This document shows positions 1,450 to 61,750 of a stretch of 64,000 bases of DNA, in pieces. The notes beneath the pieces were generated by a model. It saw only the letters and a program-made list of their open reading frames with translations, did no database searches and was not told the DNA's origin. A program made the position numbers and the translations under genes. The stretch is from assembly GCA_965248435.1 (NCBI GenBank), contig OZ252100.1:4960001-5024000 (forward strand), given 5' to 3'. The stretch's first letter is position 1. Each line of letters opens with the position of its first letter. This DNA is from Candidatus Latescibacterota bacterium. GTDB lineage: Bacteria > Latescibacterota > UBA2968 > GCA-2709665.

Positions 1450-2283
1450 CAGGGAGGGGTGCCCCGAAGGGCTTGCCCCTGCAAGATTTAAAGCAGGGGG
1501 CGGGGTGGGTTATATCGCGAGCACAAAAAATCATGCCTCCGGCGGCCGCACAATTGCGGATTTGGGATTGCGGAATGAAAGGCAAAAGGGCGTGTTTTCG
1601 GAATCAGAAAATAAATGTGGTAGGAGCCAGCTCCTGCTGGCGAACCCATGAATGGGGCTTCGCATTCGAGGGTTTCCGATCGATGAATCGGTCGTGTCCC
1701 ACAGGACACGACCTGAGACGATCCACCAACGACGGCCCTTGCCTCCGGCGGAGAGGCCAGTTCCCTCCTGGTCGGGGTGGGTAATATCGCGAACTTCACA
1801 ACATCATGCCTCCGGCGGCCCGCCCGTCGGCTCGCTGTCTTCGATCACGAACTCGCCGTGGATAATCACGAAGTCGATGCCGACAGGCTTCTGAATGTTA
1901 CCGGTACCCAACTTTTCTTGCTCGCCCAAGAAAAGGCCTACCGCAACCGCCACCCTGGGGCACAGCGCGGCTGTGCCCCTACACTCCAAGATTTCGCCGC
2001 AGGGGCGCGGCGTGCCGCGCCCGAGGACAAAAGAAAGGCGCCCCTCAGGCGCCGGGGAGGCTTCGGCCGCGGTACCTCACCCTCAGTGGCATAAACAGTC
2101 CACGGCAGGAGGGCCAAATCCTCACCACGCGCTCGCGATCACTGAGGAACCCACCCGCTGGGAGGAGAAATGGGCTGGTTGCATCGGAGTCGCACACCGC
2201 GGCCCCGACGGTTTTGAGCGATGACATTGCTTTCGTTCAATTCTTCCCCCTTTATCAAAGGGGGACCGAGGGGGATTTCGAAA
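1450..2283 (+). repeat. Mosaic palindromic repeat cluster (core element variant 1, GTAG REPs, deacylase-derived module)
   Basis: Modules recur near-identically at 23450-23960, 29826-29948 and 31010-31430. Confidence 0.9.
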
Positions 2284-2293
2284 TGTATCACAA

Positions 2294-3256
2294 TTATTGT
2301 TTTTGTACGAGATAGCCGAGGCGTTTGTCCACGACGTTCAGGAGGGGTTCGCCTTCCAAATAACGGCGGAGGTTTTCAACGAAGATGTCACCCTGGTTGT
2401 CCCAGCCTTCTGCTGACCAGCCTGCGACGTGGGGGGTGAGGACGACGTTCTCCATGTCCCACAACGGGCTGGACTCTGGGAGCGGCTCTTGTTCGAATAC
2501 GTCCAGCCCGGCGCCCCCGATCTTGTTCGACTGAAGCGCCTGGATGAGGTCGGATTCGTTGATGATGCCGCCTCGGGCCACGTTGACGACCAGGGCCGTC
2601 TCTTTCATGTGGTCGAAACACTCCGCATTCAGGAGCCCTTTCGTCCTCGCATTCAGAGGCAGGGCCACGGCGACGACATCTGCTAGAGAAAGGGCTTCCA
2701 GCATGCCCTCCGGTTTGAAGATTCGATCCACGCCTTCAGGAGGCGTTTCTACCTGCGCGTCTACCGCGATGACCTCCATGCCCAGTGCGTGGAGTCGACT
2801 GACCATGCCCCGCCCGATGCTGCCGAGCCCGAGGACGCAGACGCACTTTCCCTCGATCTGGGTGACTGTGCGATTCCGCTCCCACGTCCGGGTTTTGCGG
2901 TTTCGCTCGAAGTGAGAGATCAGGCGGGTAGAAGCCAGTATCAGCGAGATTGCGTGCTCCGCCATCGCCGTGTCGTAGGCCCCGGCGGTGTTGGTCATGA
3001 TGACGTCGCTTTCGATCATCTCAGGGTAGAGCATGGTCTCGAACCCGACCCCGATGCTCTGGACCCAGCGAAGCTGCTTGGCGGCCAGGAAGGCGTCCCT
3101 CGGAATCCGACCGTAGACCACCTCCGCATCCCCGACTTCGCTCATCAGGTCGGCATCCTTCACTGCGATTGCGTTTACCCTGGGTGATATCTCCCGCATG
3201 GCGGGGACCCACCTATCCCATTCCCCTTCCATCATCACGAGCTTGATTTCTGACAC
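2294..3256 (-). CDS. D-2-hydroxyacid dehydrogenase
   Basis: GLGSIG Rossmann motif, NVARG, LDVFEQEPLP, TPHVAG. Confidence 0.92.
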   Translation of the reverse strand: MSEIKLVMMEGEWDRWVPAMREISPRVNAIAVKDADLMSEVGDAEVVYGRIPRDAFLAAKQLRWVQSIGVGFETMLYPEMIESDVIMTNTAGAYDTAMAEHAISLILASTRLISHFERNRKTRTWERNRTVTQIEGKCVCVLGLGSIGRGMVSRLHALGMEVIAVDAQVETPPEGVDRIFKPEGMLEALSLADVVAVALPLNARTKGLLNAECFDHMKETALVVNVARGGIINESDLIQALQSNKIGGAGLDVFEQEPLPESSPLWDMENVVLTPHVAGWSAEGWDNQGDIFVENLRRYLEGEPLLNVVDKRLGYLVQKQ

Positions 3257-3365
3257 GAGCGATCCCTTTCTCCAGTTGTTTGTGAAACGCTAGGGGTAGG
3301 ATCAAACGTTTGCAAATCGGGGGGCAAAATGCCTTGGACATTCGCCTGTCACCACAACTTCCCCG

Positions 3366-3660
3366 TGCCTCCGGCGGCCTACTTGTCTCGCCACAAGAAA
3401 AGTAGGCAAAAGAAAGGCGCCGCTCAAGCGCCGCGGAGGCTTGGGCCGCGGCACCTTACCCTCAGCGGACCGATCGGACGCAGCAAAAGCCCATACTCCT
3501 CCCCCCACCTTACGCCCGCTGTGGGACCCGCCCCCACTCCGCGAATTTCCATTCGCCCCTGCCAACACCCCGAACCCCGCACCGTCCCACAGAGGGCCCC
3601 AACCCCTTGGGAGAACGAACATTGGTGGTCGCAAAGGAGTCGCACACCGCGGCCCTGAGG
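3366..3660 (+). repeat. Core repeat element, internal variant 3
   Basis: Runs from GCCTCCGGCGGCC to GAGTCGCACACCGCGGCCC with a unique longer internal module. Confidence 0.85.
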
Positions 3661-3791
3661 CATTCGGCGGACCCACCGCAATTGCAATCGTCGCAACGCG
3701 CGGACTTGCGAGATTTCCTGAGTTCACGTATCATTATGCCGCTATGAGAAACCATGATATGAAAAAATCCTCAGTTCGCAAGGAGTAGCCG

Positions 3792-6077: not shown

Positions 6078-7132
6078 GCTGGATTCAATGACTAAGTGCA
6101 ACACTTGGACTTGAAGACTTCAGCTGGTGTTTTGAAGTTAAGACATTTTCTTGGTCGGTTGTTGATCCGGTTCTGAATTTTCTTTAACTCGTGTTTGCTG
6201 ACCTTTGAGAAGTCTGTCTTCTTGGGGAGGTATCTGCGGACCAGACCGATAGCGTTTTCCACAGCGCCTCGCTCCCAGCTGTGGAACGGTTTGCAGAAAT
6301 AGGATTTGGTGCCAAGCACCTCGTTGACCCGTTGATGTTGGCCGTTTTCGGATCCGTTGTCATATGTGATGCTCTTCCTCATGTGGGGAGGATGTCGCCC
6401 AAGGCGTCGATTAATCGCTTCGGCGACCTCCGAGGGTCCGTTCTTTGCCAGCTTAGCCAGGTGTAGGTATCTCGACGATCGCTCAAGACAAGCGCCAACG
6501 GCCTGTTTGCTCTCACGAGAGATGATGGTGTCGGATTCCCAGTGGCCAGGTTGTTTCCGTTTTTCGATGTAACGGGGACGTCGATCGATCGAAATACGGC
6601 CTGGAATGTGGCTTTCCCGGTGTTTTCGGGTATGCCACCGCGGCTTTCGTTTTTTGTGAGCTCGGGATAAGCAAGCAACCAGATCCCGCTGCTTGTGCAC
6701 CTTTGGATCGTAGATATACTGGTAGATGGCTTCGTGGCTGATACCCGCGCTCGGACGCTCCTCGGGAAGCCTCCCAGCGATCAACTCGGGAGACCATCCT
6801 TGCTTGAGTTTGGTCTCGACATATCGCCGGATAACCGGATTCTTCAGCCGTTTCCGCTTGCCGGCCTCCCGCTTACGTTTCTCAGCCCTTCTGTGAGCCT
6901 GGAGGCCCGAGTAACTCTCAGCTATCGGGGACGGATTACGTTTCAACTCTCTTGAAATCGTGCTGGCGCTCCGGTCAAGGGCCTTGGCAATATCTCTAAG
7001 GCTTGCACCAGTGGCTCGACAAAGCGCAATCTGCTCGCGTTCGTCTATCGTAAGATGCTTGTAATTGTTTCCCATACACTTAGGATAGGACAGTTGCTAC
7101 CCTAAGTGTTGCACTTCCTTATTGAACTCAGG
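6078..7132 (-). mobile_element. IS30-family insertion sequence
   Basis: Imperfect terminal inverted repeats GCTGGATTCAATGACTAAGTGCAACACTT / AAGTGTTGCACTTCCTTATTGAACTCAGG; 3-bp TCA duplication at 6075-6077 and 7133-7135. Confidence 0.9.
6092..7075 (-). CDS. IS30-family transposase
   Basis: HTH (IAKALDRSASTISRELKRN), WSPELI, GHWESD, TYDNGSE, WERGAVEN, NNRPRKCL. Confidence 0.95.
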   Translation of the reverse strand: MGNNYKHLTIDEREQIALCRATGASLRDIAKALDRSASTISRELKRNPSPIAESYSGLQAHRRAEKRKREAGKRKRLKNPVIRRYVETKLKQGWSPELIAGRLPEERPSAGISHEAIYQYIYDPKVHKQRDLVACLSRAHKKRKPRWHTRKHRESHIPGRISIDRRPRYIEKRKQPGHWESDTIISRESKQAVGACLERSSRYLHLAKLAKNGPSEVAEAINRRLGRHPPHMRKSITYDNGSENGQHQRVNEVLGTKSYFCKPFHSWERGAVENAIGLVRRYLPKKTDFSKVSKHELKKIQNRINNRPRKCLNFKTPAEVFKSKCCT

Positions 7133-7202: not shown

Positions 7203-7760
7203 TTCGCCGCCAGGAGGCGGCTCCTACCGGATCTACCGGTGTTTGAATTCATGTCATTCCCTCAAGTCATGTATAAGGTAGGAGCCAGCTCCTGCTGGCG
7301 AACCCCTGAATGGGGGATTCATATTCAAGGGGCATATCAAACGAGGATCACAAGGTTCACAAAATCATGCCTCCGGCGGCCTACCCTTCGGCAGGCTCAG
7401 GGCATGCTTTTCTTGCTCGCCCAAGAAAAGTTGGACAAAAGAAAGGCTCCCCTCAGCCCCTCGATACACCGATCGCTCCCAGAAGCGGTCGCGGTCGGCA
7501 CTCGGGGGCTATTTTTCCGCTGAACCGTCCCAGTGGCCTTAGAGAGATAAGTGTCCTTGGATCTTTTGCGGCCTCTAAGAACGAGGGTGCTTGACGGATA
7601 AGCGCGGAAAAGTCCCACCCCACCCCAAACAGGTGGGTTTCTTCGCGCCTTTCGTGCTTCTTCGTGTCCTTCGTGATCCAGCGTTTGCGATCCACGAACG
7701 ACGGCCTTAGCCTCCGGCGGCCATTGTATGCGTAGGAGCCAACTCCCGTTGGCGACGGGA
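7203..7760 (+). repeat. Mosaic repeat cluster (three GTAG REP hairpins, variant-4 module)
   Basis: GTAGGAGCC hairpins at 7203 (reverse), 7278 and 7732; modules shared with 15606-15900. Confidence 0.85.
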
Positions 7761-9324: not shown

Positions 9325-9640
9325 TCCCCTCCCGGGAGGGGTGCCCCGAAGGGGCGGGGTGGGTGCAATCAGGATCTCTGAACAACATGCCTCCGGCGGC
9401 CAACCCTTCGGCAGGCTCAGGGCATGCTTTTCTTGCTCTCGCCCAAGAAAAGTAGGCAAAAGAAGGGCGCCCCTCAGGCGCCGGGGAGGCTCCGGCCGCG
9501 GCACCTCACCCTCAGTGGTATAAACAGTCCACGGCAGGAGGGTCAAATCCTCACCACGCGCTCGCGATCACTGAGGAACCAACCCGCTGGGAGGAGAAAT
9601 GGGCTGGTTGCATCGGAGTCGCACACCGCGGCCCCGATTG
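9325..9640 (+). repeat. Core repeat element, variant 1
   Basis: Near-identical to the other variant-1 copies. Confidence 0.9.
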
Positions 9641-10539: not shown

Positions 10540-10860
10540 ATGCCTCCGGCGTCCCGTCCGTCGGCTCGCCGTCTTCGATCACGAACTCGCCGTTGACGAA
10601 CACGAAGTCGATGCCGACGGGCTTCTGAACGTTTGCTACCGGTACCCAACTTTTCTTGCTCGCCCAAGAAAAGTTGGGCAAAAGAAGGGCGCCCCTCAGG
10701 CGCCGGGGAGGCTGATTTTTCCACGAACTCTCAGTGGCCTTAGAGAGGTTTGTGTCCTTGGATCGTTTGTGACGTCCATAAACGAAGGTGCTTGACGGAT
10801 AAGCGCGGAAAAATCCCACCCCTCCCCCCGAGGGAGACGCCTCGGCGGGGCATCTCTACG
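10540..10860 (+). repeat. Mosaic repeat cluster (deacylase-derived module, variant-4 module, REP)
   Basis: Modules shared with 1806-1900 and 22408-22530. Confidence 0.88.
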
Positions 10861-12168: not shown

Positions 12169-12480
12169 GATGCCTCCGGCGGCCTACCCTTCGGCAAGCT
12201 CAGGGCATGCTTTTCTCGTCTCGCCACAAGAAAAGGCCTACCGCAACCGCCACCCTTGGGCACAGCGCGGCTGTGCCCCTACACTCCAGGATTTCGCCGC
12301 AGGGGCTCGGGCCGCGGCACCTCACCCTCAGTGGAAAGGACGGTGGCGGCAATCAGGGCGGGACTCCCGCCCCGCCTGACGCCCATTATGGGACCGGCCC
12401 AGAGGGCCTAACCGCGTGGGAGGTGAAAGAACGAGGTTGCATGGGAGTCGCACACCGCGGCCCTGATGGATTTGAGCGAT
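12169..12480 (+). repeat. Core repeat element, variant 2
   Basis: Matches 16010-16250, 29950-30190 and 32640-32880. Confidence 0.9.
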
Positions 12481-15529: not shown

Positions 15530-15603
15530 GATTGTGGCGGTGTCCGTTTGTCGGAATCCCTAATGCCCAACCCTGAGCCGGCCGACTTAAACGGCGAATT
15601 GGA

Positions 15604-16475
15604 TCCGGTAGGAGCCAGCTCCTGCTGGCGAACCCCTGAATGGGGATTCATATTCAGGGGGCGTATCAAACGAGGATCACAAGGTTCACAAAACAATGCC
15701 TCCGGCGGCCAACTTTTCTTGCTCGCCCAAGAAAAGTTGGACAAAAGAAGGGCTCCCCTCAAGTGCCGGGGAGGCTGACTTTTCCGCGAACCGTCTCAGT
15801 GACCCTAGAGATATTTGTGTCCTTGGATCTTTTGTGGTGTCCACAAACGGGAGTGCTTGACGGATAAGCGCGGAAAATTCCCACCCCACCCCACGAGCAG
15901 AGTGAATAAAATTGTATCCGGTAGGAGCCAGCTCCTGCTGGCGAACCCCTGAATGGGGATTCATATTCAAGGGGCGTATCAAACGAGGATCACAAGGTTC
16001 ACAAAACAATACCTCCGGCGGCCAACTTTTCTTGCTCGCCCAAGAAAAGTTGGACAAAAGAAGGGCGCCGCTCAAACGCCGCGGGGGCTGGGGCCGCGGC
16101 ACCTCACCCTCAGTGGAAAGGACGGTGGCGGCAATCAGGGCGGGACTCCTGCCCCTCCTGACGCCCACTATGGGACCGGCCCAGAGGGCCTAACCGCGTG
16201 GGAGGTGAAAGAACGAGGTTGCAAGGGAGTCGCACACCGCGGCCCTGATGGGTTTCAGTGATCCTTTTCGTGGAGTACACCTCGTCTAGTGGATGAGTAG
16301 GGTGGATCTGACGAGATACGCTTCACGAGATACGAGATGCGGTAACAAAGTCCCCTCTTAGGTCGGGGTGGGTTACGATCGCGGCGCCGGACATGAATTT
16401 CCAAAGCGGGGAGTAGTCTCTTCGCAAAAGGCATACTTCCCCCTTTCCGAAAGGGGGACTGAGGGGGATTTCAAA
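15604..16475 (+). repeat. Mosaic repeat cluster (tandem leader copies; variant 4 then variant 2)
   Basis: 15604-15760 repeated at 15917-16073, each followed by a different module. Confidence 0.9.
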
Positions 16476-16531
16476 TTGAATCACGATGACTCTTCAGATT
16501 ATTTGAGCAGGGTAAAGCCCGGGTCCAACAC

Positions 16532-17542: not shown

Positions 17543-17544
17543 GT

Positions 17545-18460
17545 CCGCGAACCGTCTCAGTGACCCTGGAGATATTTGTGTCCTTGGATCTTTTGTGGTG
17601 TCCACAAACGGGAGTGCTTGACGGATAAGCGCGGAAAAGTCCCACCCCACCCCACGGGCATCGTGAATGAAATTGTATGCGGTAGGAGCCAGGAACCTCT
17701 GAATGGAGCTTTCATATTCAAGAGCCATATCAAACGAGGATCACAAGGTTCACAAAACAATGCCTCCGGCGGCCTACTTTTCTTGTCTCGCCACAAGAAA
17801 AGTAGGCAAAAGAAAGGCGCCGCTCAGGCGCCGCGGGGGCTTTGGCCGCGGCACCTCACCCTCAGTGGCATAAACAGTCCACGGCAGGAAGGCCAAATCC
17901 TCACCACGCGCTCACGATCACTGAGGAACCAACCCGCTGGGATGAGAAATGGTCTGGTTGCATGGGAGTCGCACACCGCGGCCCCGACGGTTTTGAGCGA
18001 TGACATTGCTTTCGTTCAATTCTTCCCCCTTTGGAAAAGGCCTGTCCCGAGCGAGCATGCGAGTCGAGGGAGGGACTGAGGGGGATTTCAAGATGCATCA
18101 CGCATGGGAGTCGCACACCGCGGCCCCCGAGGCCTGGGGTGGGTTTGCGAACGACGAATCGGTCGTGTCCCACAGGACACGACCTGAGACGATCCACGAT
18201 CGACGGCCTTTAGCCTCCGGCGGAGAGGGCAGTCCCCTCCTGGGTCGGGGTGGGTCACAATAGGGTTTCTGCCCAATCAGACCCACCCCTAGATCGCCGT
18301 CAAGGAGGGCACTTTAGTATTCGCACCAGATGCTTTCCGGGGTGTCCCGAAGGCCTGCCCCTGCAAGATTTAAGCAGGGGGACAGAGTGGGTTACGATTG
18401 CGGATTTGGGATTGGGGAATGAAAACCCAACCTCACCGCAGAGGCGCAGAGATCGCAGAG
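17545..18460 (+). repeat. Mosaic repeat cluster (variant 4, variant 1, solo right end, G/C-run hairpins)
   Basis: Modules recur across the window. Confidence 0.9.
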
Positions 18461-22056: not shown

Positions 22057-22690
22057 TCCCCTCCTGGTCGGGGTGGGTCACAATCGAGTTTCTGCTCATC
22101 AGACCCACCGCTAGATTGCCTCCACAAAGGGCGCTTAGTATTCGCACCAGAAGCTCTCCGGGGTGCCCCGGAGGCTTGCCCCTGCGTGATTTAAGCAGGG
22201 GGAAGGGTGGGTTTACGAACGACGATCCACGAACGACGGGCCTTAGCCTCCGGCGGCCAACTTTTCTTGCTCGCCCAAGAAAAGGCCTACCGCAAGCGCC
22301 ACCCTTGGGCACAGCGCGGCTGTGCCCCTACACTCCAAGATTTCCCCGTAGGGGCGCGGCGTGCCGCGCCCGAGGACAAAAGAAGGGCTCCCCTCAGGCG
22401 CCGGGGGGGCTGACTTTTCCACGAACCGTCCCAGTGGCCCTAGAGATGTTTGTGTCCTTGGGTCTTTTGTGTTGTCCACAAACGGGAGTGCTTGACGGAT
22501 AAGCGCGGAAAAGTCCCACCCCACACCCCAAACCGGCCAGGAAGACCTAACCCCCCCAACCCCCCTTCCCTAAAGGGAAGGGGGGAGAGGTCAGGATCAT
22601 CGTGAATTCGAGGAGGAAGTTGATTTCGCGAGAGTGGATGGCTCTAACCTTCCCTCCCCCTTCAGGGGAGGGACCGAGGGAGGGGTCCAA
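22057..22690 (+). repeat. Mosaic repeat cluster (REP pair, variant 4, G/C-run hairpins)
   Basis: 22057-22170 matches 41822-41935; other modules also shared. Confidence 0.9.
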
Positions 22691-23960: not shown

Positions 23961-24146
23961 TTGTATCACGTGGTTCACACGTGCGGGCCGCATCAAACTA
24001 TGTTGGCCTGACGGGCGTGTCAAGGCGGTGATCCGGGCCGTTTCGGGCAAGGACAATCCGGTTGCGGTCACGCGTCTCAGGTGTTATCATGCCTAGCGAG
24101 AAAATCCCCAGTCCACCCGTAGTTATCGTAGATAAGGAGGAGCATC

Positions 24147-25573: not shown

Positions 25574-25595
25574 GTCCGCATCATCGATCTCACGG

Positions 25596-38830: not shown

Positions 38831-38938
38831 GGTGCTACTCCGCTATACGAGAAATGAAGTGAGACACTTTGCACACCTCGATACGCCCGCTTCGCGGGCT
38901 ACTCGGTGCAGGCGGGCTGATGGTGACGCACATAGGAT

Positions 38939-39181: not shown

Positions 39182-39270
39182 GGGTGGCCCCTTTTATCGC
39201 GATCTGCGGTTTGGCGAGGGATCAATATAATGAAAAAGGGGGTGATGGAGGAAGTGATTTTCGAGCGCGA

Positions 39271-39855: not shown

Positions 39856-39857
39856 CG

Positions 39858-41405
39858 CTAACCCGATCGCCGTAGTACCTTGCCCGGGGTTCGGCCAGTC
39901 GGTTCACCATTTTCGATCACGAGCTCGCCGTTGACGAACACATAATCGATCCCAACGGGCGGGAGCATGGGCTCTTCAAATGTCGCGGGGCCGTCGATCG
40001 TATCGGGATCGAAGATGACGAGGTCCGCGGCCTTGCCTTTCGCGATTTCGCCGCGGTCGCCGAGGCGGAACCGCTTCGCGGTGAACCCGCTCATTCTGTG
40101 GATTGCCTCTTTGAGCGAGAGGAGCTTCTTTTCGCGAACGAACCGGGCCGGTACGCGGGCGAAGCAGCCGAACCCGCGCGGGTGTGGGTGGGGGATGTCG
40201 TAGACGCCGTCGCTGGCGATCATCATCCTGGGGTCGGTCGCGGTGCGCGTGATTCGCTTTTCTATGTCTTCTTCGGGGAACTGCCACGGGAAGATGTAGC
40301 ACTGCCGGCCCTCTTCCTCGACGACGAGGTCGTAGGCGAACGCCTCGGGTGTCTTGCCGGTCTGTTTCGCCGCCTCGGCCAGTCTGAGGCCGGTGTAGCG
40401 GCCCGATCGGGTGTGGCCGATGATCTGATTCGCCGCGCCGAGCTTTTCCCGCAGGACGGGGAGGGAGGTGTCGCGGACCGCGGGGTCCTTCAGCCGTTCG
40501 AGGACGGTCTCCGGGCTGCCGAGCTGAAACTCCATCGGGATCATCATCGTCATGTGGGTCATGCCTGCCGGGTAGAGGTAGGACTCGAAGGTGAGGTCGA
40601 TGTTATCGCGCTCGGCATGGTCGAGGACCTCGACGATCTCGTCGCTGACGGTGGCGTGAGAGACGTGGACCGGAATCCCCGATTGTCGCGAGAGCTCGAG
40701 CGTCTCCTCCCAGGCGCCCGTGACGCCCAGGATCTGGTAGCGGATGTGCGCGGTGTAGATGCCGCCGTAAGACTCCGTGATCTTACAGAGGGCGACGAGC
40801 TCGCGGAGGTCGGCGTTCGAGCTGGGCTGATAGTCCAGGCCGAGGCAGAGCGCGCCGGCGCCGGCCTCCATCCATTCCCTTGTGATTCTGGACATCGTTT
40901 CGAGCTCGGCGTCGGTTGCGGGGCGAGGGTCCCAGCCCATCGCGGCGAGGCGTACCGCGCAGTGGGGGACCTGGGGGTAGACGTTCGACGGTGTATTTCC
41001 GGGGAAGAGGGCGAGGTAATCCTCCGGGGTCGGCCAATTCAGGGCGAGGTCAATGTCGGGATAGATGAAGGCGGTGTAGTCCCACATCTCGCGGGCTCTT
41101 TCCTTCGTGAGACCGGCCCACCCGAAGCCGTCGGGCGCGAGGAGCTGGGTGGTGACGCCCTGCATGGGCCCGGCGAATCGGTCCCGCCCGCCGAGGAGGG
41201 AGATCTCCGAGTGGACGTGCACATCGATAAATCCAGGACAGACGGAGCGACCCGAAGCGTCGATTTCGCGGGCGGCTTCGGCCGCGCTCAAATCGTCGAC
41301 CGCGGCGATGCGGTCCCCGGTAATGCCCACGTCGGCGGAGAAGGGCTCCACGGCGCCGGTGCCGTCCACGACGAGGGCGTTGCGGATGAGGGTGTCGAAG
41401 GTCAC
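39858..41405 (-). CDS. N-acyl-D-amino-acid deacylase family amidohydrolase
   Basis: PGFIDVHVHS, QGVTT, HPRGFG.F.R, G..ADLVIFDP, GIDYVFVNG. Confidence 0.92.
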   Translation of the reverse strand: MTFDTLIRNALVVDGTGAVEPFSADVGITGDRIAAVDDLSAAEAAREIDASGRSVCPGFIDVHVHSEISLLGGRDRFAGPMQGVTTQLLAPDGFGWAGLTKERAREMWDYTAFIYPDIDLALNWPTPEDYLALFPGNTPSNVYPQVPHCAVRLAAMGWDPRPATDAELETMSRITREWMEAGAGALCLGLDYQPSSNADLRELVALCKITESYGGIYTAHIRYQILGVTGAWEETLELSRQSGIPVHVSHATVSDEIVEVLDHAERDNIDLTFESYLYPAGMTHMTMMIPMEFQLGSPETVLERLKDPAVRDTSLPVLREKLGAANQIIGHTRSGRYTGLRLAEAAKQTGKTPEAFAYDLVVEEEGRQCYIFPWQFPEEDIEKRITRTATDPRMMIASDGVYDIPHPHPRGFGCFARVPARFVREKKLLSLKEAIHRMSGFTAKRFRLGDRGEIAKGKAADLVIFDPDTIDGPATFEEPMLPPVGIDYVFVNGELVIENGEPTGRTPGKVLRRSG

Positions 41406-41734
41406 GGGAGCCTACTTTCTCAGTTCGCGCGAAATGGGTAGTGAGTTTACCCGTTTGGTGGATTAGGCGAAAGTGAATGGGGTTTCTGCCGGTTACTCCC
41501 CGCACGGAGCGTCAATATTTGCTTTAAGTATTGTAAACTTAATGAGTTAATTTTTCTTCAGTCAATGTAATTCTTTTGCGCCTTTGAGGAGGTTTACACG
41601 TAATTTTGGGTAATATGATTCCAAATTGACGCGCAAAATGGAATCAACACTTCCATTTTGCGGGGGAGTGCTGGGGAACAGATGTGCGACTTCACCCACA
41701 CCGACCTCTGGAGCTCTGGTCCTCGAATGCGCGA

Positions 41735-42746
41735 ATTGTATCCGGTAGGAGCCAACTCCTGTTGGCGAACAAGAGAATCGCGATCCACCTTGCTGAGCCC
41801 CACGCCAAACGCGGTGCCAAGTCCCCTCCTGGTCGGGGTGGGTCACAATCGAGTTTCTGCTCATCAGACCCACCGCTAGATTGCCTCCACAGAGGGCGCT
41901 TAGTATTCGCACCAGAAGCTCTCCGGGGTGCCCCAAAGGGGCGGGGTGGGTCGAATCACGATTTGAGAAAAACATGCCTCCGGCGGCCCACTTTTCTTGC
42001 TCGCCCAAGAAAAGTGGGTCAAAAGAAAGGCGCCCCTCAGGCGCCGGGGAGGCTCCGGCCGCGGCACCTCACCCTCAGTGGCATAAACAGTCCACGGCAG
42101 GAAGGCCAAATCCTCACCACGCGCTCGCGATCACTGAGGAACCAACCCGCTGGGAGGAGAAATTCTCTCGTTGCATCGGAGTCGCACACCGCGGCCCTGA
42201 TGGTTTCGAGCGATCTTCTTTGTGAGATAGAAAGACGCCAGTCCCCTCCTTGGAGGGGTGCCCCGAAGGGGCGGGGTGGGTCGAATCACGATTTGAGAAA
42301 AACATGCCTCCGGCGGCCCACTTTTCTTGCTCGCCCAAGAAAAGTGGGTCAAAAGAAGGGCTCCCCTCAGTCGCCGCGGGGGCTTTGGCCGCGGCACCTC
42401 GCCCTCAGTGGCATAAACAGTCCACGGCAGGAGGGCCAAATCCTCACCACGCGCTCGCGATCACTGAGAAACCAACCGCTGGGAGGAGAAATGGTCTGGT
42501 TGCATCGGAGTCGCACACCGCGGCCCTGATGAATTGCAGCGATCTCTTTCGTGAGTTTGAGAGACGCCAGTCCCCTCCCAGGAGGGGTGCTCCGAAGGGG
42601 CGGGGTGGGTTTTACGAACGACGATCGACGGCCTTCCGACTTTCCCGATCCCCGGTACCCGTGTTCTGCTTTCCCGGTACCCGGTCTTTGCGAGCGACGA
42701 ACGACGGTTTTACGGTACCCGGTACCCGTGTTTTGGTTTCCCGGTC
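41735..42746 (+). repeat. Mosaic repeat cluster with two tandem variant-1 elements
   Basis: 41925-42200 repeated at 42255-42530. Confidence 0.9.
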
Positions 42747-42807
42747 ATGATACACAAAGAGTCAATGTGCTCGTAGGAAAATGTGTTAAGGTGACAAGCG
42801 AAAGCGT

Positions 42808-42837
42808 TTGACAGGGCCACCGATTCATTGGTAAGTT
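42808..42837 (+). promoter_or_regulatory. Sigma70-type promoter upstream of the transaldolase-family gene
   Basis: TTGACA, 18 bp spacer, TG-n-TAAGTT; the boxes are largely retained in the duplicate at 44033-44062. Confidence 0.55.
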
Positions 42838-42911
42838 GCAAAACGGCGGCGTCAGGAGGTTCGGTTGCCGTATTCGTATGTACGCAACCTGTTGACCAGG
42901 AGGAACTCGAA

Positions 42912-43664
42912 ATGGCAACGAAAAGCGCCTCGGCAGCCAGTTTGGGACGTGTGCCAGCCGCACGTAACGAGGGAAGGGGTCCCACGATCTGGCTCGCCGG
43001 CGATCCGGATGACTTGCGAGAATGGATGCCGATGGGCATCACGGGTATCGTGCTGAACACGGTGGTGCACAACGAGTACGCGCAGAATCACGGCTCAGCC
43101 ATGAAGGTTGTCGAAAAATACTTAGAGATGACGGATAAGCCGGTCGTTGTCGAGATCGATGGACATACTGTCGATGAGTTGAGGGCGGTGGGGAAGGTCT
43201 TTACCGATCTATCGGATCAGATCATCCTGAAGATTCCGTGCTCGGCCAATGGACTGAGGGCCTTCGCCATCCTGAAGGATGAAGGTGTCGAGACGTTCTG
43301 TACGACGGTCTTTTCGTTGACTCAGGCGGCGGCTGTCGCGCAGGCAGGGGTCGATCACATCCTGCCATTCTGTGACCCGGTCAAACAGGTCGGCGGTGAT
43401 CCAACGCAGCTCATTCGAGAATGCTCAGAGATGTTCAAGGGATGGGCGCATCGACCTTTCGTGATGGCGGCTCTGGTTCGGTCCGTGGAGACCGCTCACG
43501 CGGCGTTCCGAGATGGAGCGGACGAGCTCGTGACGATGTGGACGGTCTATCGAGATATGCTCGAGCATCCGCTGACGGATCAGTGGATGAAGATTTTCCT
43601 GGATTCGTGGAACGACATGCACGAGAAGGGGCTGCTCGAGGGGGTACCCGTCGAGCAGCATTAA
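42912..43664 (+). CDS. Transaldolase/fructose-6-phosphate aldolase family protein (divergent)
   Basis: ILKIP Schiff-base Lys, G.ETFCTTVFS..QA, MAALVRS, HPLTD. Confidence 0.75.
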   Translation: MATKSASAASLGRVPAARNEGRGPTIWLAGDPDDLREWMPMGITGIVLNTVVHNEYAQNHGSAMKVVEKYLEMTDKPVVVEIDGHTVDELRAVGKVFTDLSDQIILKIPCSANGLRAFAILKDEGVETFCTTVFSLTQAAAVAQAGVDHILPFCDPVKQVGGDPTQLIRECSEMFKGWAHRPFVMAALVRSVETAHAAFRDGADELVTMWTVYRDMLEHPLTDQWMKIFLDSWNDMHEKGLLEGVPVEQH

Positions 43665-53035: not shown

Positions 53036-53340
53036 ACGTCCTCCAGCGTGTGCCAGTCTTCAGGGGCTAGACCTCGGAGGAATGAACCCACGATGTCCAA
53101 CACACGTTGCTCAGCTGCGTACTGGATATGCTCTCGAAGGCGCAGCTGCTTCTCTGGTGCGCTAGTATGCCACCAAGCGCCAAGAATAAGCGGGAGTGCG
53201 GGATTCCAATCCCCGCCTTCCCTCCGTTTGCCTGGCAGCATCTCCCAAAGCGCTTTCCAATGCTGCGGCTGCGGGCAGACCCGCCGCTCAGCCTGAACAT
53301 AGGAAAGAAGACTCGTGAGGTTTTCAGAGTTGTTTGCCAT
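53032..53340 (-). CDS. Small Trp-rich hypothetical protein
   Basis: 102 aa, tightly packed between the methyltransferase and helicase genes; RVCPQP..W, PLIL.AWW. Confidence 0.7.
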   Translation of the reverse strand: MANNSENLTSLLSYVQAERRVCPQPQHWKALWEMLPGKRREGGDWNPALPLILGAWWHTSAPEKQLRLREHIQYAAEQRVLDIVGSFLRGLAPEDWHTLEDV

Positions 53341-53344
53341 CGTT

Positions 53345-56300
53345 TCACCCGAGCCGCTGGTTCTTGACCAGCTCGCGGAGTACGCGCGCGGCGCTCGCTT
53401 CTTCGGGGCGCAAGCTCTCAAGTCGGTTGGCGAGGTAATCGGCGAGCTCCACGGCGAGCTCACGCTGGGTCAGGTCGCCGTAGTAATTGGGCACGTTGAG
53501 CATGAGGTGGGCCAGTACCTCGCTCCCGTCCACGTTCTTGACCAGCTCCATCAGCGCGAACAACGCGGCCCGCAGTACCGATTGGTGAAGCTCGGAGCCG
53601 TCGCCCATTTCGGCGCGGGCAAGCTCAACCGCACTCTTGAGCCGCGCGTTGTTGGCCTTGTGGCTGCCCATCAACGGTTTGAAGTCGCGTACCTTGAACG
53701 ATTTCGCGAAGTTCTGGTAGTTGTCGAGCGTCTTCTGGCCTCTGGCTTCAAGGTCGAGCATCTTCAAATAGAAACGCTCAGCGGGAAGCAACTTGTCCCA
53801 TTGCGACTTGGGAAGGCCCCGGGGTACAAGGCACTGGTTGGCCGTATCCACGGCGAAAGCGATCAGGCCGTCGACGAAGGTTGTCTCGCCCCTGACACGC
53901 GGCCGGACCGCTTCCGCGGTCATATTGCGACCGTCTATGATAGCGTAGCGGGTAAGCACACGCAGAGCCGCCGCGTAGCCCGCCATTTGGATGTCGGCGT
54001 CTTCAAAGACGTTCTCGTCGCGGTAGAGGCCCTTGGCCTCTTGGTTCAGGCCGGAAAGTGCCTGTACCTGTGATTCGACTTCCTCCTGGATCTCCCAAGC
54101 GAGGTCATCGCGAGTCGTCTTGTGCATCCCCTCGCGCTTGCGCAGGACGAGGAGGACCGTTCCTTTTACGTAGCTTCCTTCGCGGAGGACGCTGTCCGTC
54201 TCGGTGACCACGTACCAGGCCGCAGTGACGCGTAGCCCGGCCGCCCACACGATGTTCGCCATGTCAGCCCAGATCGAGCCGGATTGATGAGTGAACATAA
54301 TGATCAGGATCCCATTGTCCGGCATGCATTCCGTCATACGCCGATATGCGGTCACCATCCCGCGCCGGAAGTCCTCGTCTTCGCCCTTGATAGCGAGCGA
54401 GCGGCGACTGTCCCAAACCCACTCAGCGAATTCGGGGTGCGGATTCTTGCGCAGCCAAGCAATGAAGAATTCTAGTATCTCGTCATAGTTCACTGCGTCG
54501 CCGTACGGTGGATCAGTTATGCACACGTCGAAATTAGCCGACACGTCCGCTGCCGGCTGGCAGGCTATTTCCCAATCACCATGTGAGACGCTGTGAGGAA
54601 AGGCCCCGCCAAAAAGTTCGAGAAGCGGAAAACTCGCTCGGCACCCATAGTTATAGAATGTGTTGAGTGCTTGGTTGTAGTAGACGTGGGCAGGATTATC
54701 GCTTGCACCTCCCGTCCGGCCGCCTTCGCCAGACTTGCTCGAGCCAGCTTTCGAAGTAGTCCACTGGCACAGTTTGCTTGTATAATCTAGGATTCGGGCG
54801 AGTAGCAGGGTGTGCTCACCGCCGGTTGCTTCTCGCCTCAGCATGCCGAGCAACATCAGGTGCCGGGGCGGGAATAGGTGATGCCAGTACGTCCAGCCTC
54901 GCTCGCGCAATAGGCGCGTTGTCTCCGCGCCAGGTTCGATGCGCATGTCCGGCAGCCATCCCTTGCTCTGCCATTCCGTAAGATGTCGGGCGACGAATTC
55001 CTCGACAACTCGCTCTCGGTCAAGATCGTTTTCCGATACGGACCGGAACTCGTAGTCAAATTGTTTGCCCGTTTTCTTGCTTCTCATCCAATGAACAGCA
55101 TAGAGACGCTCCTGAAAGAGGTCGTCTAACCGCGGTTTGAAATCCGAATTTTCCCAAAGCCGCAGCCTGTTGTCAATTGTTCCGTCAGAAGTCCGGTGGT
55201 CTCCACGCAATGTAGAAATCTTCGTTCGATACTCTAGGCCATCAACCGTGTGTATGAGATAAGGCTCCCGACCTCGGCCGTCGTTTTTCACCGTTCCCTT
55301 CGATGCGGCTGCCATTTCCGCTTCTGACGCACCGGACCGCACAAGAATGTCGTAGCATTTCTCTGGAGCGCGCGGTTCGAGTTCTGCAATGGCCCTGTTT
55401 TTGAAGCTGAGTATTCTGGAAGGAATCAATGGTACTTTCCATCCAGTTTGCGGACAGCGCACCTCAAGACAGTAGAGGTAGGCCTTCGCGCGCCAACCAT
55501 CACCGTCAGTCTCGATGCCCAGCTTGTCAATCTCTGCATTCACTCTACGTACAAGCTCCTGCTGGGACTTAGCGAGTATCTTTCTGCTTTTTTCCGTGCC
55601 ACCCACGATATTCAGGGCTCCCCAGGTGAGCATGCACGCGACAGGGTTCAATTCCGAAGCGTATACGTCACAGCCAAGCCTTGCCGCCTCGAATGGAATC
55701 TGTCCAGATCCGCAGAAAGTGTCGGCGACTCGCGTGCGGTGGCCAAAGCGCATTATGCCGAGCTGTTCAATCAACTCCGGAAATGATTGGGCGCTTGTCC
55801 CGAGGTGGGAGTTTACCGCATCCCAGATGTGGACGTGCACTGTGTCCATCACCTCTTCGGGCCGCTTCGCCGCGCCCACTCGCTCCCGATACGGCCTCCT
55901 GGGAAGTGCTTGCGCCACGAGCCTGCGTCGCTTAAGCTCAGGCAAGTCCTTGCGCCAGGAAACCTTGATCCCGTCGTACTTGGGATTGGACCAGTCTACT
56001 GGCGCGGATTCAGGCAGCACTCCCTGCGGATCGACCGTGAAGTAATCGGTGATTCGAGCAATAGAGATGGCTTCGAGAATCACCTTCGGCTTTAGGCGGC
56101 TCTTCCACCGAGCGACAAAGGACTCGTCGTCCATTGCCATCAGCTTTTCAAAGATCTCGAGGTCCCGGGGAGAGTCATCAGTCGCCGGCAGCAGGCAACC
56201 GAGGATGCACGCCTTGCTTAGGAGAAGCGGCTTCCGCCCCTTCCAATAGGCACCGAGTTTCACAAGAGTTTGACCAGTGCCCGCCTTTCTTTCCTTGAAC

Positions 56301-56389
56301 ACCTCGGCGGAGAGCTTCTGCACAGGCAGCAGGTGCTCGATAAGGGCAGGTGTGTCCTTTAGAGAGAACGGAGTAAGCATGTCATTCAT
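53345..56389 (-). CDS. DUF1156-domain adenine DNA methyltransferase
   Basis: LGAYWKGRKPL, DTFCGSGQIPFEA (SAM binding), ELNPVA, TDPPY catalytic motif. Confidence 0.9.
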   Translation of the reverse strand: MNDMLTPFSLKDTPALIEHLLPVQKLSAEVFKERKAGTGQTLVKLGAYWKGRKPLLLSKACILGCLLPATDDSPRDLEIFEKLMAMDDESFVARWKSRLKPKVILEAISIARITDYFTVDPQGVLPESAPVDWSNPKYDGIKVSWRKDLPELKRRRLVAQALPRRPYRERVGAAKRPEEVMDTVHVHIWDAVNSHLGTSAQSFPELIEQLGIMRFGHRTRVADTFCGSGQIPFEAARLGCDVYASELNPVACMLTWGALNIVGGTEKSRKILAKSQQELVRRVNAEIDKLGIETDGDGWRAKAYLYCLEVRCPQTGWKVPLIPSRILSFKNRAIAELEPRAPEKCYDILVRSGASEAEMAAASKGTVKNDGRGREPYLIHTVDGLEYRTKISTLRGDHRTSDGTIDNRLRLWENSDFKPRLDDLFQERLYAVHWMRSKKTGKQFDYEFRSVSENDLDRERVVEEFVARHLTEWQSKGWLPDMRIEPGAETTRLLRERGWTYWHHLFPPRHLMLLGMLRREATGGEHTLLLARILDYTSKLCQWTTSKAGSSKSGEGGRTGGASDNPAHVYYNQALNTFYNYGCRASFPLLELFGGAFPHSVSHGDWEIACQPAADVSANFDVCITDPPYGDAVNYDEILEFFIAWLRKNPHPEFAEWVWDSRRSLAIKGEDEDFRRGMVTAYRRMTECMPDNGILIIMFTHQSGSIWADMANIVWAAGLRVTAAWYVVTETDSVLREGSYVKGTVLLVLRKREGMHKTTRDDLAWEIQEEVESQVQALSGLNQEAKGLYRDENVFEDADIQMAGYAAALRVLTRYAIIDGRNMTAEAVRPRVRGETTFVDGLIAFAVDTANQCLVPRGLPKSQWDKLLPAERFYLKMLDLEARGQKTLDNYQNFAKSFKVRDFKPLMGSHKANNARLKSAVELARAEMGDGSELHQSVLRAALFALMELVKNVDGSEVLAHLMLNVPNYYGDLTQRELAVELADYLANRLESLRPEEASAARVLRELVKNQRLG

Positions 56390-56393
56390 CCCA

Positions 56394-57660
56394 TTACCCG
56401 ATCCGCTGGTTGCTAATGAGTTCGCGAAGCACCCGCCCACCGCTCGCCTCTTCGGGGCGCAAACTGTCAAGCCGGTTGGCGAGGTAATCGGCGAGCTCCA
56501 CAGCGAGCTCACGCTGTGTCATGTCACCGTAGTAATTGGGCACGTTGAGCATGAGGTGGGCCAGTACCTCGCTCCCGTCCACATTCTTGACCAGCTCCAT
56601 CAGCGCGTACAGCACGGCCCGCAGTACTGATTGGTGAAGCTCCGAGGCGTCGCCCATCTCCGCGCGGCCGAGCTCCGTCGCACTCTTGAGCCGCGCGTCG
56701 TTCGCCTTGCGGCTCCCCATCAGAACCTGGAAGTCGCGTACCTTGAACGCCTTAGCGAAGTTCTGGTAGTTGTCGAGCGTCTTCGCGCCCCGGGCCTCCA
56801 GGTCGAGCATCTTCAAATAGAAGCGCTCAGCCGGAAGCAGCTTGTCCCAGTTCGACTTGGGGAGGCCCTCCGGTACGAGGCACTGGTTGGCCGTATCCAC
56901 GGCGAATGCAATCAGCCCGTCCACGAAGGTCGTCTCGCCTTTGACACGCGGCCGGATCGCCTCGGCGGTCATGTCGCGGCCGTCGATCACGGCATAGCGA
57001 GTGAGCACACGCAGGGCCGCCGCGTAGCCCGCCATCTGGATGTCGGCGTCCTCGAAGACATTCTCGTCGCGGTAGAGGCCCTTGGCCTCCTGGTTAAGGC
57101 CGGAAAGTGCCTCCACCTGCGCTTCGACTTCCTCCTGGATTTCCCAAGCGAGATCGTCGCGGGTGGTCTTGTACTCCCCTTCGCGCTTACGAAGGACCAG
57201 GAGCACGGTGCCCTTGACGTAGCTTCCTTCGCGGAGTGGGCTGTCGGTCTCGGTGACGACGTACCAAGCCGCGGTGACATGAAGTCCGGACGCCCAGACG
57301 ATGTTCGCCATGTCGGCCCAGATCGAGCCAGACTGATGAGTAAACATGATGACCTGGATGCCATTGTCGGGCATACAATCGGTCATCCGTCGATACGCGG
57401 CAACCATCCCTCGGCGAAAGTCCTCGTCTTCACCCTTGATCGCGAGTGACCGGCGGCAGTCCCACACCCACTCGGCAAACTCGGGCGGCGGCCTCCTGCG
57501 AAACCAAGCGACGAAGAAATCCAGGATCTCCTCGTACTTCACTGCATCGCCGTATGGCGGATCAGTGATATATACGTCGTTAACATCATCAAGTTGCTCG
57601 GCAGAAGCCGCCTTCACTGCGTACTTGATGTTGCCTGGGACCGGGAACCACTTGTAGTTC
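56394..57660 (-). pseudogene. 5'-truncated second DUF1156 methyltransferase (C-terminal ~410 aa)
   Basis: Highly similar to 53345-54520 from TDPPY to the stop; SAM-binding half absent. Confidence 0.85.
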
Positions 57661-59449: not shown

Positions 59450-59482
59450 TGGCCGTCTGCGGTCTGTGGTCTGCCGTCTGCT

Positions 59483-59524
59483 CTTCACCACGTATTAATC
59501 TCATGCCCATTCCCCGGAAACCAT
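59483..59524 (-). repeat. Displaced 42-bp copy of the 3' end of the DUF6785 gene (61899-61940)
   Basis: 39/42 identical; both copies encode WFPGNGHEINTW-stop; the three differences are synonymous. Confidence 0.88.
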
Positions 59525-59676
59525 GAAGGCCCGTATTTCGTATCTCGGGGCGATTGACCTACCCTTCAACGGACACAGCCCGACCGCCTATTTTCTCTTG
59601 ATTTGTTGTTTATTACCGACTTAGAGCAATTTTCCAGACGTCTGGAATATTGGGTTATAGATCGAATCGTTGTTTT

Positions 59677-61293
59677 TTAGTGATTTAGAACAATTTTCCA
59701 CGCGCGTGGAATATTCGTTGATCGTGAATCGTGGATTCTAACTCCCCGCACTAAAAGGAAGTGGCCCAACGCCTGAGTAATGGAGTTTAAAAGCCGAATG
59801 CTAGAATAGGATATGAGCTTCAGTGTCTCAAGACGGCTTTTAAAACTCCGGAGATCGTGGATCGTAAAAACGCGTATCTCGTATCGCCGGGGAATGCATC
59901 GTTTCCGTGGCCCTCCGCCTCTTTCCGCTTTTCTCCGTGATCCAGCCTGTTTGCCATCGCCCTCGCTTGCAATTTCCTGAAGACATGAAATCTTCCGAGC
60001 GGATTCCCGCGCATCCCCTTCGATGAGGCAATAAAGCTCCAGTTCCTCCGGACATCCGCAGGGTCGCCGCCACAGGCCTGCTTTTGTGAGCGCTGCTTCC
60101 AGAGCCTTTCTCTGTGAAGCGTCCCGCACCAGGAAGTAGAGTCCGGCGGGGAGGTCATCCACGCGGTGAACAAAGATGGCCAGATGAATATGAGGCTTCC
60201 AGGGAAGCGTGCTGAACGGAATGTTTCCTGGGACGGCCAGGGTCTTTTGAAGGATTCGATAGAACGTGTCTCGAGAGATTCGAGTCTCTCCGTCCATCGC
60301 CACGGCACTCCGGCGTTGGCGAATCATCTTGCGAAGAGAAACAGGACGAATGTCCAAAGACCACGGCTTCGGTGGACTTTTAAACGGTTCATACGGGCTC
60401 GAACCACGCCGCTTCCGAGCCGCCTCTGCAATTTCATCCATACCCCATTCAACGTGAGACGGACTCAGTTGATTGGGACGGCCACGCCAGTCAAGAGACT
60501 CGAAAGTCAGAACATGGTCCTGGGGCAAACCTGCTTCATTCGCCTCTTTTCCAACCGGACCTATGGCCAGCAGCACATCCGGCTCTTCCGGCTCGGCGTC
60601 GTGATCACGAAATGTGCCCGTGAGCATCGCCAACTCATCCGTGCTCAAATCGTCCAGCATCCACGCGTGCCAGCCAAGCCCGGCTGCGGCGATACTGACA
60701 GCCCCGATGGCGTGACCGGCATCGTGCTGGCAGTAGCGATAGGCGCGCTGACCGTACTTCCAGGCCTCTCGCCAGTGAATGGAAGTGAGTCCTATGAAGA
60801 GTGTGTCCTTCGGGAATTTCACGCAGAGGTTTTCCCATAACTCCAACCCGAACTCTGCCCGCACCTCCAACCCGTGTTCCCTGGGTGCATAATGGCAGAC
60901 CATGGGCTTGTCGCATAGTGCTTCTACAGGACCGCAGATCAGGTAGGCCTCGGTCGGATGCAGATTCCCACTGGAAGGATTGACGCGTAGTGCCCAACGG
61001 GTCTCGCCCGTGCTTTTCCAGGCAGATATCGCGAGGCTATCGTAGAAGAGTTGAGAAATGCTTCGCAAGTTCATCGGAACGGGGGGGATTCGGCCCTGAA
61101 TAAAGGCATCGTCGTATCGCGGTTCATCCGTGGGTCCGATTTTCTCCAGAGGTACCAACCGCGCGCCCTCATACCGACGAAAAGGGTTCGGCTGAGTGGC
61201 CCAATCCAAATATCCCGGGCTCCTGGCAAAGCCCTGGAAGTGATGCTTTGTGGCCTGGTGATAATCGAAGACGTTTTCGAGCGGGTCGGTCAT
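59677..61293 (-). pseudogene. SagB/ThcOx-family nitroreductase, 3'-truncated near 59959
   Basis: YHQATKH, LDWATQP.PFRRY, NPSSGNLHPTE, WREAWKYG.RA.RY; after CLQEIASEG the frame runs into repeat-derived sequence. Confidence 0.75.
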
Positions 61294-61397
61294 AGCCGTG
61301 TGCGAGGGGGTTTAAAGTCCGCTACAATACGTGAGATGATCGTTTCTCGTAAAATACAGTTTTTCTTCGTTGCAGGACGCTATCGATATACAGTGAG

Positions 61398-61750
61398 GGG
61401 TGGGTTGTATCGCGAACTTCACAACAGCATGCCTCCGGCGTTCCGCCCGTCGGCTCGCTGTCTTCGATCACGAACTCGCCGTTGACCATCACGAAGTCGA
61501 TGCCGACGGGCCTCTGAACGTTGCTACCAGTACCAACTTTTCTTGTCTCGCCACAAGAAAAGTAGACAAAAGAAGGGCGCCGCTCAGTCGCCGCGGGGCT
61601 CGGGCCGCGGCACCTCACCCTCAGTGGCATAAACAGTCCACGGCAGGAAGGCCAAATCCTCACCAAGCGCTCGCGATCACTGAGGAACCAACCCGCTGGG
61701 AGGAGAAATGGTCTGGTTGCATCGGAGTCGCACACCGCGGCCCTGATGGG
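61398..61750 (+). repeat. Mosaic repeat cluster (deacylase-derived module, variant 1)
   Basis: Shared modules. Confidence 0.9.

Follow-up and report, generated by a model that had tools for sequence, protein, structure and literature searches.

A structured intergenic repeat family of Candidatus Latescibacterota, part of whose copies lie within the ends of an ISL3-family insertion sequence

Several bacteria possess intergenic repeats that are both modular and structured, such as the pneumococcal BOX elements (boxA-boxB(n)-boxC), the enterobacterial ERIC/IRU sequences, and the BIMEs of E. coli. Repeats of this kind are dispersed between genes, combine a constant frame with exchangeable or repeated inner modules, are closed by long-range outer pairing, and vary in copy number between relatives; for most of them we know of no dedicated enzyme. 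Here, we describe a repeat family with the same properties in the 5.66 Mb genome (56.6% G+C) of a Candidatus Latescibacterota bacterium, starting from a stretch of 64,000 nucleotides (G000:C1:4960001-5024000), referred to below as the window, and extending the comparison to the rest of that genome and to its relatives. The family has no sequence relationship to BOX, ERIC, or BIME repeats and differs from them in that two local hairpins and a closing stem are kept by compensatory change across two taxonomic families, and in that part of its copies lie within the ends of an insertion sequence (IS). In the literature on Candidatus Latescibacterota we found no paper on repeats or non-coding RNAs.

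Among the other closely similar systems are the MITEs (miniature inverted-repeat transposable elements) derived from IS of the ISL3 family. An element of the ISL3 family that has a GGGTCTTCGGA repeat and duplicates 8 bp is described in PMC9782665; in the passages of PMC4133298 that were consulted, ISL3 duplications are not mentioned. As in ISL3-derived MITEs, the two-ended copies of the present family are shorter than 650 bp, lack a transposase gene, possess terminal inverted repeats that match those of an IS, show 8 bp duplications, occupy the target of that IS, and reside in a genome that also contains full copies of it. Unlike such MITEs, they carry in their interior an older, structured module that is present throughout the order rather than a deleted IS, and most copies in the window have no transposon ends. 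The family represents a concrete case of a miniature transposon bearing a structurally constrained module that is not derived from its parent IS, and this module survives and multiplies in dozens of genomes without the transposase. It has its place among known kinds of element, the MITEs and the modular repeats; the unusual part is the core, which keeps its stems through complete turnover of their sequence and thrives without the transposases that we tested. If it is true that the core has a propagation mechanism or an RNA function of its own, it would constitute a new structured element.

ISL3-type ends, target sites, and insertion of the family

On balance, the evidence favors the view that the core is what is conserved in a family of intergenic repeats that are non-coding and non-autonomous, that multiply as DNA, and that are, in this genome, partly enclosed in the ends of an ISL3-family IS. 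The right-end motif of the family, GAGTCGCACACCGCGGCCC, occurs 17 times in the window without mismatch, always on the plus strand (0 expected in 100 shuffles). Fifteen of these belong to full copies, the ones listed in an earlier note on this sequence, all of which proved real; the two additional ones are solo right ends. The left-end motif, GCCTCCGGCG, is found 35 times in the window at up to one mismatch (12.5 expected), and outnumbers the full units because this end is also joined to other repeat modules. Genome-wide, the right-end motif occurs 56 times (33 on the plus and 23 on the minus strand), with 25 right ends, all on the plus strand, concentrated within 4.927-5.038 Mb; hairpin 1, the first stem of the core, anchors 56-57 loci, which puts the family at approximately 56 copies. 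The units have no coding capacity, in keeping with their earlier description as a non-coding, non-autonomous repeat.

The same genome contains ten copies of an ISL3-family IS, each 1,322-1,323 bp in length with an open frame of 427 amino acids; the transposase scores 224 bits with DDE_Tnp_ISL3 (PF01610), for which the cut-off is 23. The ends of this IS are GGTTCTTCGTCAAATGTTGGGG and, reverse-complemented, GGTTCATCACCGATTTCCGGGG; all ten copies lie in CCCCCC-TTTNNAAA-GGGGGG sites, and five of the ten show a perfect 8 bp duplication. When those core copies that share a long left flank were aligned, they were found to start with GGCTCTTCACCGAATCTAGGGG and to end in the reverse complement of GGTTCTTCGCCGAATGTTGGGG, and to sit between the halves of a CCCCCTTT..AAAGGGGG palindrome, 8 bp of which are repeated. 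A right end within five substitutions of the left inverted repeat of the IS is present in 22 of the 56 core copies, and in all but three of these it is followed by the right half of the palindrome. The left ends, surveyed genome-wide, are of one type in nine copies and of the IS right-end type in at least three; a second subfamily has a left end that reproduces approximately 33 nt of the right end of the IS. Ten distinct elements possess two ends (for example, G000:C1:4599761-4600269); they measure 386-627 bp, and all ten contain the core. Among the eight of these that could be assessed for a duplication, all 8 positions match in four, 7 in two, 6 in one, and 5 in one, although a palindromic target alone makes such partial matches likely. 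The IS and the two-ended MITEs share the same target, the loop of the CCCCCC-TTTNNAAA-GGGGGG palindromes.

A palindromic repeat whose loop is this target, TTCCCCCTTTGGAAAAGGGGGACTGAGGGGGATTTC, occurs at 39690-39730, 16440-16480, and 30335-30375 of the window and at many other sites in the genome. It is also found inside the piece of 129-142 nt that separates duplicated right ends in two of the window copies.

That the units are insertions is evident from a sister genome of the same genus (G001), since it keeps a gene cluster of the window with short spacers. The genes at 24104-41414 occur there in the same order, with 77-83% identity, and the matching spacers measure 25, 61, 163, and 103 nt, as opposed to 571, 637, 777, and 622 nt in the window. 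The extra DNA of each window spacer consists of one family member together with other repeat families. Even should the core have neither a propagation mechanism nor an RNA function of its own, the family would be of use as a marker, and it accounts for intergenic spacers in this genome that are 4 to 20 times longer than those of the sister species. The contigs of four sequencing runs end at repeats and contain no clean empty site.

These observations suggest the following sequence of events. In this genome the core would have become enclosed between two ends of the ISL3-family IS, giving rise to MITEs of 390-630 bp upon which the 427-aa DDE transposase of the ten full IS copies may act in trans. 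Judging from the shared ends and target, this transposase probably moves the MITEs, each of which would enter a palindrome of the CCCCCTTTNNAAAGGGGG type at its loop, with duplication of 8 bp; this route is the best-supported mechanism for the dispersed copies. The same-strand array of the window would consist mostly of derivatives from which both transposon ends were lost. In window copies other than copy 8 the right arm stops at ...GAGACGCCAG and is joined directly to a REP-like module (REP, repetitive extragenic palindrome), and the module at this junction lies in the left arm of the full MITE, which yields a head-to-tail unit of 330 bp (41976-42526). Some derivatives are joined head to tail, a truncated right arm running into an inner left arm, and the end-less units may have multiplied locally via recombination or replication slippage between shared repeat modules. 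As to why the stems are kept, our guess is that folded or inverted-repeat DNA is recognized during propagation, rather than that one RNA strand has a function.

Several points weigh against this account. Within the window an ISL3-type end is present on only one of the 15 copies (copy 8, 29952-30293) and none is two-ended, so that the ISL3 mechanism does not cover most of them. Transposition was not observed, the read and contig data having broken at repeats. Across the order, ISL3 transposases are found in 8 of 53 genomes, as opposed to 48 of 53 for the core; they are absent from the copy-rich genomes G018 (74 matches), G003 (71), G022 (96), and G026 (95), and are represented only by remnants in G001 (89 matches), where a sample of approximately 400 kb contained no ISL3-type ends save one unrelated match. 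Finally, the linker and hairpin 2 are strongly conserved in sequence between two families, more so than a passive passenger would require. Because ISL3 is absent from copy-rich genomes, the core must also multiply in some other way, and because the two distributions differ, the term ISL3 MITE applies to the composite elements of this genome alone and not to the core itself. In an ISL3-rich genome (G038), a single GGCTCTTCG-like end was found approximately 115 nt past hairpin 2 of one copy.

It is conceivable, if doubtful, that the core belongs to an undescribed class of structured nucleic acid, with a frame of approximately 200 nt (a three-way 5' domain and a stem-closed variable domain) whose fold has been kept through complete stem sequence turnover across two families. 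Such a class, whether RNA or folded single-stranded DNA, would direct or aid its own multiplication independently of ISL3, Y1, and IS110 transposases, and the ISL3 ends of this genome would be a secondary capture of a structured module that already propagated itself.

The core and its conserved stems

The core is old, being present throughout the order and predating this genome. In a BLAST comparison of one copy with 40 relatives, only the first ~100 nt, which comprise hairpin 1, a linker, and hairpin 2, recurred elsewhere. A search of related genomes, as the earlier note had suggested, was productive: of the order's 53 genomes, 48 contain matches to a covariance model of this 5' module, from 1 to 96 or more apiece and roughly 1,100 in total, and the same architecture was seen throughout the order at the one locus inspected per genome. 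Copies within one genome are more alike than copies from different genomes. The exact right-end motif, by contrast with the module, has 79 single scattered matches among 185,579 species genomes, all in high-G+C genomes, which we read as chance; a degenerate pattern of hairpin 2 has no match in viral contigs and 15 matches in metagenome contigs. At the gathering score of Rfam 15 the window contains no match, and at E<=1 three loci of the family (L014, L018, L021) returned nothing except hairpin-type miRNA noise on another repeat in L014, in line with the earlier statement that the family could not be assigned.

From left to right, the core consists of a left end GCCTYCGGCG (replaced in genus g3 by a C-rich or A/T-rich leader), an A/T-rich hairpin 1 of 13-14 bp, an A-rich linker AAAAAGAAGG, a short G+C-rich hairpin 2 (loop TCAAACGCC), GGGGCT, a long closing stem, and a short tail. 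The closing stem encloses a variable domain of approximately 100 nt with the conserved blocks CYCAGTGG and TGCTGRACGGA. Its form in the window interiors recorded in the earlier note, GGCCGCGG/CCGCGGCC, is a lineage-specific version, and the sister genome has GGCCGTGGCG/CGCCACGGCC in its place. The whole unit measures approximately 200 nt in its order-wide form and is longer in this genome, where the repeated units are 220-400 bp. In genus g6 (family f2; L132, L133, L140, L144, L189), the tail past the closing stem contains three to four GATGG motifs spaced 12-13 nt apart, several of them within GGGATGG, a sequence that contains GGA, as CsrA-type sites do.

Pairing was assessed in 44 full-length sequences from genera g1, g2, g3, and g7, plus one from g10, aligned to a full-length model. 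In this alignment 89.1% of the cells are standard pairs, whereas shuffling gives 84.8% and sliding of the 3' partners 49-55%, and 25 of the 47 pairs change on both sides, versus 10.2 in shuffles; none of 500 shuffles reaches any of the five pairing measures. The proposal that the stems undergo compensatory change is borne out by these counts, which cannot be taken as probabilities, since the alignment was made by fitting to the model and the shuffles ignore the relatedness of the sequences. Hairpin 1 provides most of the signal, with changes on both sides in 12 of its 13 pairs and 98% pairing, and the helices of the closing stem are 92-97% paired. When 35 sequences were aligned with MAFFT, unfitted to the model, and folded on either strand, the same three helices were recovered, and hairpin 2 was found to be G-C in 26 sequences and C-G in 8. 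At one and the same position, the closing stem takes at least eight forms that differ in sequence and are each complementary, although the script used for this comparison picked another stem in 4 of 34 sequences. Together, the linker and hairpin 2 form the most conserved stretch of the element.

Selection for pairing is well supported for hairpin 1, hairpin 2, and the closing stem. Of the cells in the inner helices, 75-80% are paired, in an alignment that was itself fitted to the model, which lends weak support to a possible selection for pairing in the inner junction. The multi-junction fold suggested previously stands with respect to the three helices and is much less secure in its interior.

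A separate observation concerns the order-wide version of the closing stem, whose two arms, GGCTGCTTTTCCGCG and the sequence complementary to it (e.g., 15776-15790 with 15868-15882 in the window), resemble the ISL3-type inverted repeat GGCTCTTCGCCG at approximately 9 of 12 positions. It may be speculated that the stem-closed domain is itself an ancient small MITE.

The stems could in principle be maintained in RNA or in DNA. Pairing in the three strong helices is nearly all Watson-Crick. Cells with G-U and cells with A-C occur at about the same frequency on either strand, and the two strands differ little in consensus energy (-35.7 versus -34.8 kcal/mol); single-copy folding gave z-scores of -2.76 (plus) and -2.62 (minus). 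Because the stems are strand-symmetric in this manner, we lean toward a constraint at the level of DNA.

Alternative explanations

A tentative alternative is that the core is a structured non-coding RNA gene or module that has multiplied and that, in this genome, hitch-hikes in transposons; the transcript would be either a plus-strand RNA starting from hairpin 1 or a minus-strand RNA ending at hairpin 2 and a U-tract. The compensatory changes in three helices and the conservation across the order are compatible with such a gene, as is the persistence of the family in genomes without ISL3, Y1, or IS110 transposases. On the minus strand, a terminator-like hairpin followed by a T-run is formed by hairpin 2 with the linker, where the element is conserved best, in every copy examined (3 of 3 in L177 and 5 in window positions 29500-43000), and in one genus g3 subfamily an A/T-rich leader lies just upstream of hairpin 1. 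The inner helices are rich in plus-strand G-U pairs, but the alignment was fitted to a model in which the plus strand is the one of their prediction. The strand symmetry of the three strong helices, both in G-U and A-C cells and in consensus energy, would speak against a function in RNA, and no σ70-like promoter site was found in window positions 29500-43000; two plus-strand matches just upstream of a copy at L177 belong to a neighboring REP-like repeat and do not precede every copy. Furthermore, 50-96 or more copies per genome, their likeness within a genome, and their absence from orthologous spacers of a sister genome constitute the behavior of mobile DNA, and there is no Rfam match. The earlier note had left the choice between a mobile element and a non-coding RNA family. 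The former is supported in that the repeat is non-autonomous and is partly packaged as ISL3 MITEs; an RNA identity does not emerge from strand-symmetric helices.

Described RNAs of transposons offer a partial parallel. The HEARO/omega RNA of IscB/IsrB and the IS110 bridge RNA are likewise approximately 200-300 nt long, contain several helices, and are multi-copy and transposon-associated. They differ from the present family in that it has no Rfam match, its genome encodes no TnpB-type domain, and IS110 neither tracks the family nor lies consistently adjacent to it.

Alternatively, the element might act in cis on adjacent genes, as a portable terminator, an mRNA stabilizer, or an insulator, and be kept for its usefulness where it lands. 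We consider this unlikely. The terminator-like minus-strand hairpin with its T-run would suit such a role, as would the strictly intergenic location of this non-coding element. However, the element has no fixed orientation relative to the adjacent genes: the right-hand gene points at it in 18 of 30 loci across the order (2 of the 30 having been mis-oriented by the script) and in approximately 6-7 of 14 in the window, neither of which differs from chance, and therefore it is not a leader or trailer of particular genes. The sister genome lacks the element in the same spacers. Among 54 neighboring reading frames there was no enrichment of any Pfam domain; the most frequent was found in 3 of the 54, and none was a transposase.

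We regard as very improbable that the family is the remnant of a single-stranded DNA transposon of the IS200/IS605 or REP/RAYT kind, moved by a Y1 (HUH) transposase from the lagging-strand template. Like the REP/REPIN repeats of RAYT transposases and the IS200/IS605 elements, the family contains subterminal hairpins, most of its copies lack terminal inverted repeats, and its copies are biased in orientation in this genome, where of 56 right ends 49 have their sense strand on the G-rich, presumed leading, strand; the genome also contains five Y1_Tnp matches. This bias drops to approximately 18 versus 7 loci once clusters are collapsed, and it is not reproduced in the sister genome G001, where 17 plus-strand versus 7 minus-strand matches lie at negative sampled GC skew (20 samples of 20 kb, a noisy measure that the matches do not follow). 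Unlike in the RAYT and IS200/IS605 systems, there is no co-occurrence with Y1: the domain is present in 34 of 53 genomes without correlation with the family, is absent from the copy-rich genomes G019 (27 matches), G007 (33), G026 (95), G034 (61), and G043 (64), and is abundant (32 matches) in G004, which has no copies of the family. The two intact Y1 genes of the present genome are flanked by a different REP. These two 159-aa frames (G000:C1:2292534-2292875 and 3762381-3762722; L001, L002) have GCGTGGAAATTTATTTCCACGC / GCGCGGGAATTCATTCCCGCGC at their sides and look like RAYT genes with a REP family of their own.

The autonomous partner had been proposed in the earlier note to be sought among Y1/HUH, reverse transcriptase, IscB/TnpB, and GIY-YIG proteins, and the one found is none of these: neither TnpB-type PF07282 nor reverse transcriptase PF00078 has a match in the genome, Y1 does not track the family, and the partner found is the ISL3 DDE transposase. 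IS110 was likewise considered, either as a partner or as an IS with the element for its target, and was rejected. Its distribution, 19 of 53 genomes, does not track that of the family, as it occurs in three copy-rich genomes of genus g6 and not in the copy-rich genomes of family f1, and at ten IS110 loci that were checked there were four model matches at no fixed distance. In the present genome, a 314-aa tyrosine recombinase has six copies, which are of two nearly identical versions; at G000:C1 1445115-1449176, 2067117-2072488, and 3850323-3861096, IS110-family transposases are found within 4-10 kb of it, a neighborhood that suggests a larger mobile element with multiple copies.

An integron-like array of cassettes in the chromosome, with the repeat as its recombination site, which would fit 25 right ends in one orientation over 110 kb, the presence of one per spacer between single unrelated metabolic genes, and the joining of the left-end motif to several different modules, can practically be dismissed, as the genes lie on both strands and are not cassettes, because they are syntenic and compact in the sister genome, as the integrase matches near the cluster are only short C-terminal fragments beside IS3-like remnants, and as the right end, compared by eye, departs from the GTTRRRY core consensus.

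Copies and neighboring features in the window

All members of the family in the window lie on the plus strand. Three interior modules, in 10, 4, and 1 of the full copies, were confirmed by reading the copies, as were the hairpin 1 versions CCTAC/GTAGG, CCAAC/GTTGG, and CCCAC/GTGGG, the hairpin 2 versions CCCC/GGGG and CCGC/GCGG, and a copy with a mismatched hairpin 2 (42316-42384), all of which had been reported previously. Interior variant 1 is found in copy 3 (9389-9634), copy 6 (17762-17984), copy 11 (35996-36217), and copy 12 (39418-39640), the last of which served as the reference copy, and in copies 13 (41976-42197) and 14 (42306-42526), which form the first and second units of the 330 bp head-to-tail pair, hairpin 2 being mismatched in the second. 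The remaining members of this group contain nested insertions. Copies 1 (1808-2205) and 7 (23492-23894) carry both a gene-fragment module and a REP-like doublet, in copy 1 between the left end and hairpin 2; copy 9 (31075-31385) carries the REP-like doublet in hairpin 1, and copy 15 (61431-61743) the gene-fragment module. The latter is a fragment of 77 nt, antisense, from the 3' end of an amidohydrolase gene on the minus strand (39858-41405); this version of the unit occurs six times in the genome, which indicates that variants spread as units. The doublet pairs two REP-like hairpins in inverted orientation, GGGGCACAGCGCGGCTGTGCCCC and GGGGCGCGGCGTGCCGCGCCC, which lie together as one insertion within the 3' arm of hairpin 1 at 1935-2040, 23625-23730, and 31115-31220, an arrangement that resembles a REPIN.

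Interior variant 2 is present in copies 4 (12172-12463), 5 (16011-16245), 8 (29952-30187), and 10 (32642-32876), and variant 3 solely in copy 2 (3367-3655). The right arm of copy 8 extends over 30188-30293 and terminates in the ISL3-type inverted repeat (30272-30293; genome position 4990293), after which comes TTTACAGAGGGGGG, the target palindrome's right half. The two solo right ends, at 18108-18126 and 39751-39769, lie 142 nt past copy 6 and 129 nt past copy 12, respectively, each after an insertion that contains another palindromic repeat. A further copy begins at 63960-64000 and runs off the window, its right end being at genome position 5024176.

A different closing stem, TTTTCCGCG/CGCGGAAAA, is present in five members that the earlier note does not list, four of them full and one partial (17544-17635). 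The full ones, which show the order-wide form of this stem (TTTTCCGC.../GCGCGGAAAA), lie at 7394-7624 (116 bits, with an insertion in hairpin 2), 10637-10825 (177.5 bits), 15700-15890 (176.4 bits), and 22337-22525 (126 bits, with a REP-like doublet in place of hairpin 1).

Other features of the window accompany the family or lie near it. A REP-like hairpin, GGTAGGAGCCAGCTCCTGCTGGCGAAC, composed of a GTAG head and a palindrome, is present in seven copies (1602-1668, 7260-7326, 15590-15656, 15903-15969, 29903-29969, 39791-39857, and 41727-41793), often 70-100 nt upstream of a family member. No tRNA or tmRNA was found in the window. Between two family members, a minus-strand frame of 327 aa (6092-7075) contains HTH_38 and a weak rve match and is IS30-like by its domain order. 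An open frame of 1,174 aa on the plus strand (26084-29608) comprises approximately 13 diverged repeats of 168 bp that appear NHL-like by eye (...DxxNxRIRKV). Two stretches of 300 bp, at 53338-53637 and 56387-56686, are 87% identical and are located at the ends of adjacent minus-strand frames of 1,055 and 407 aa.

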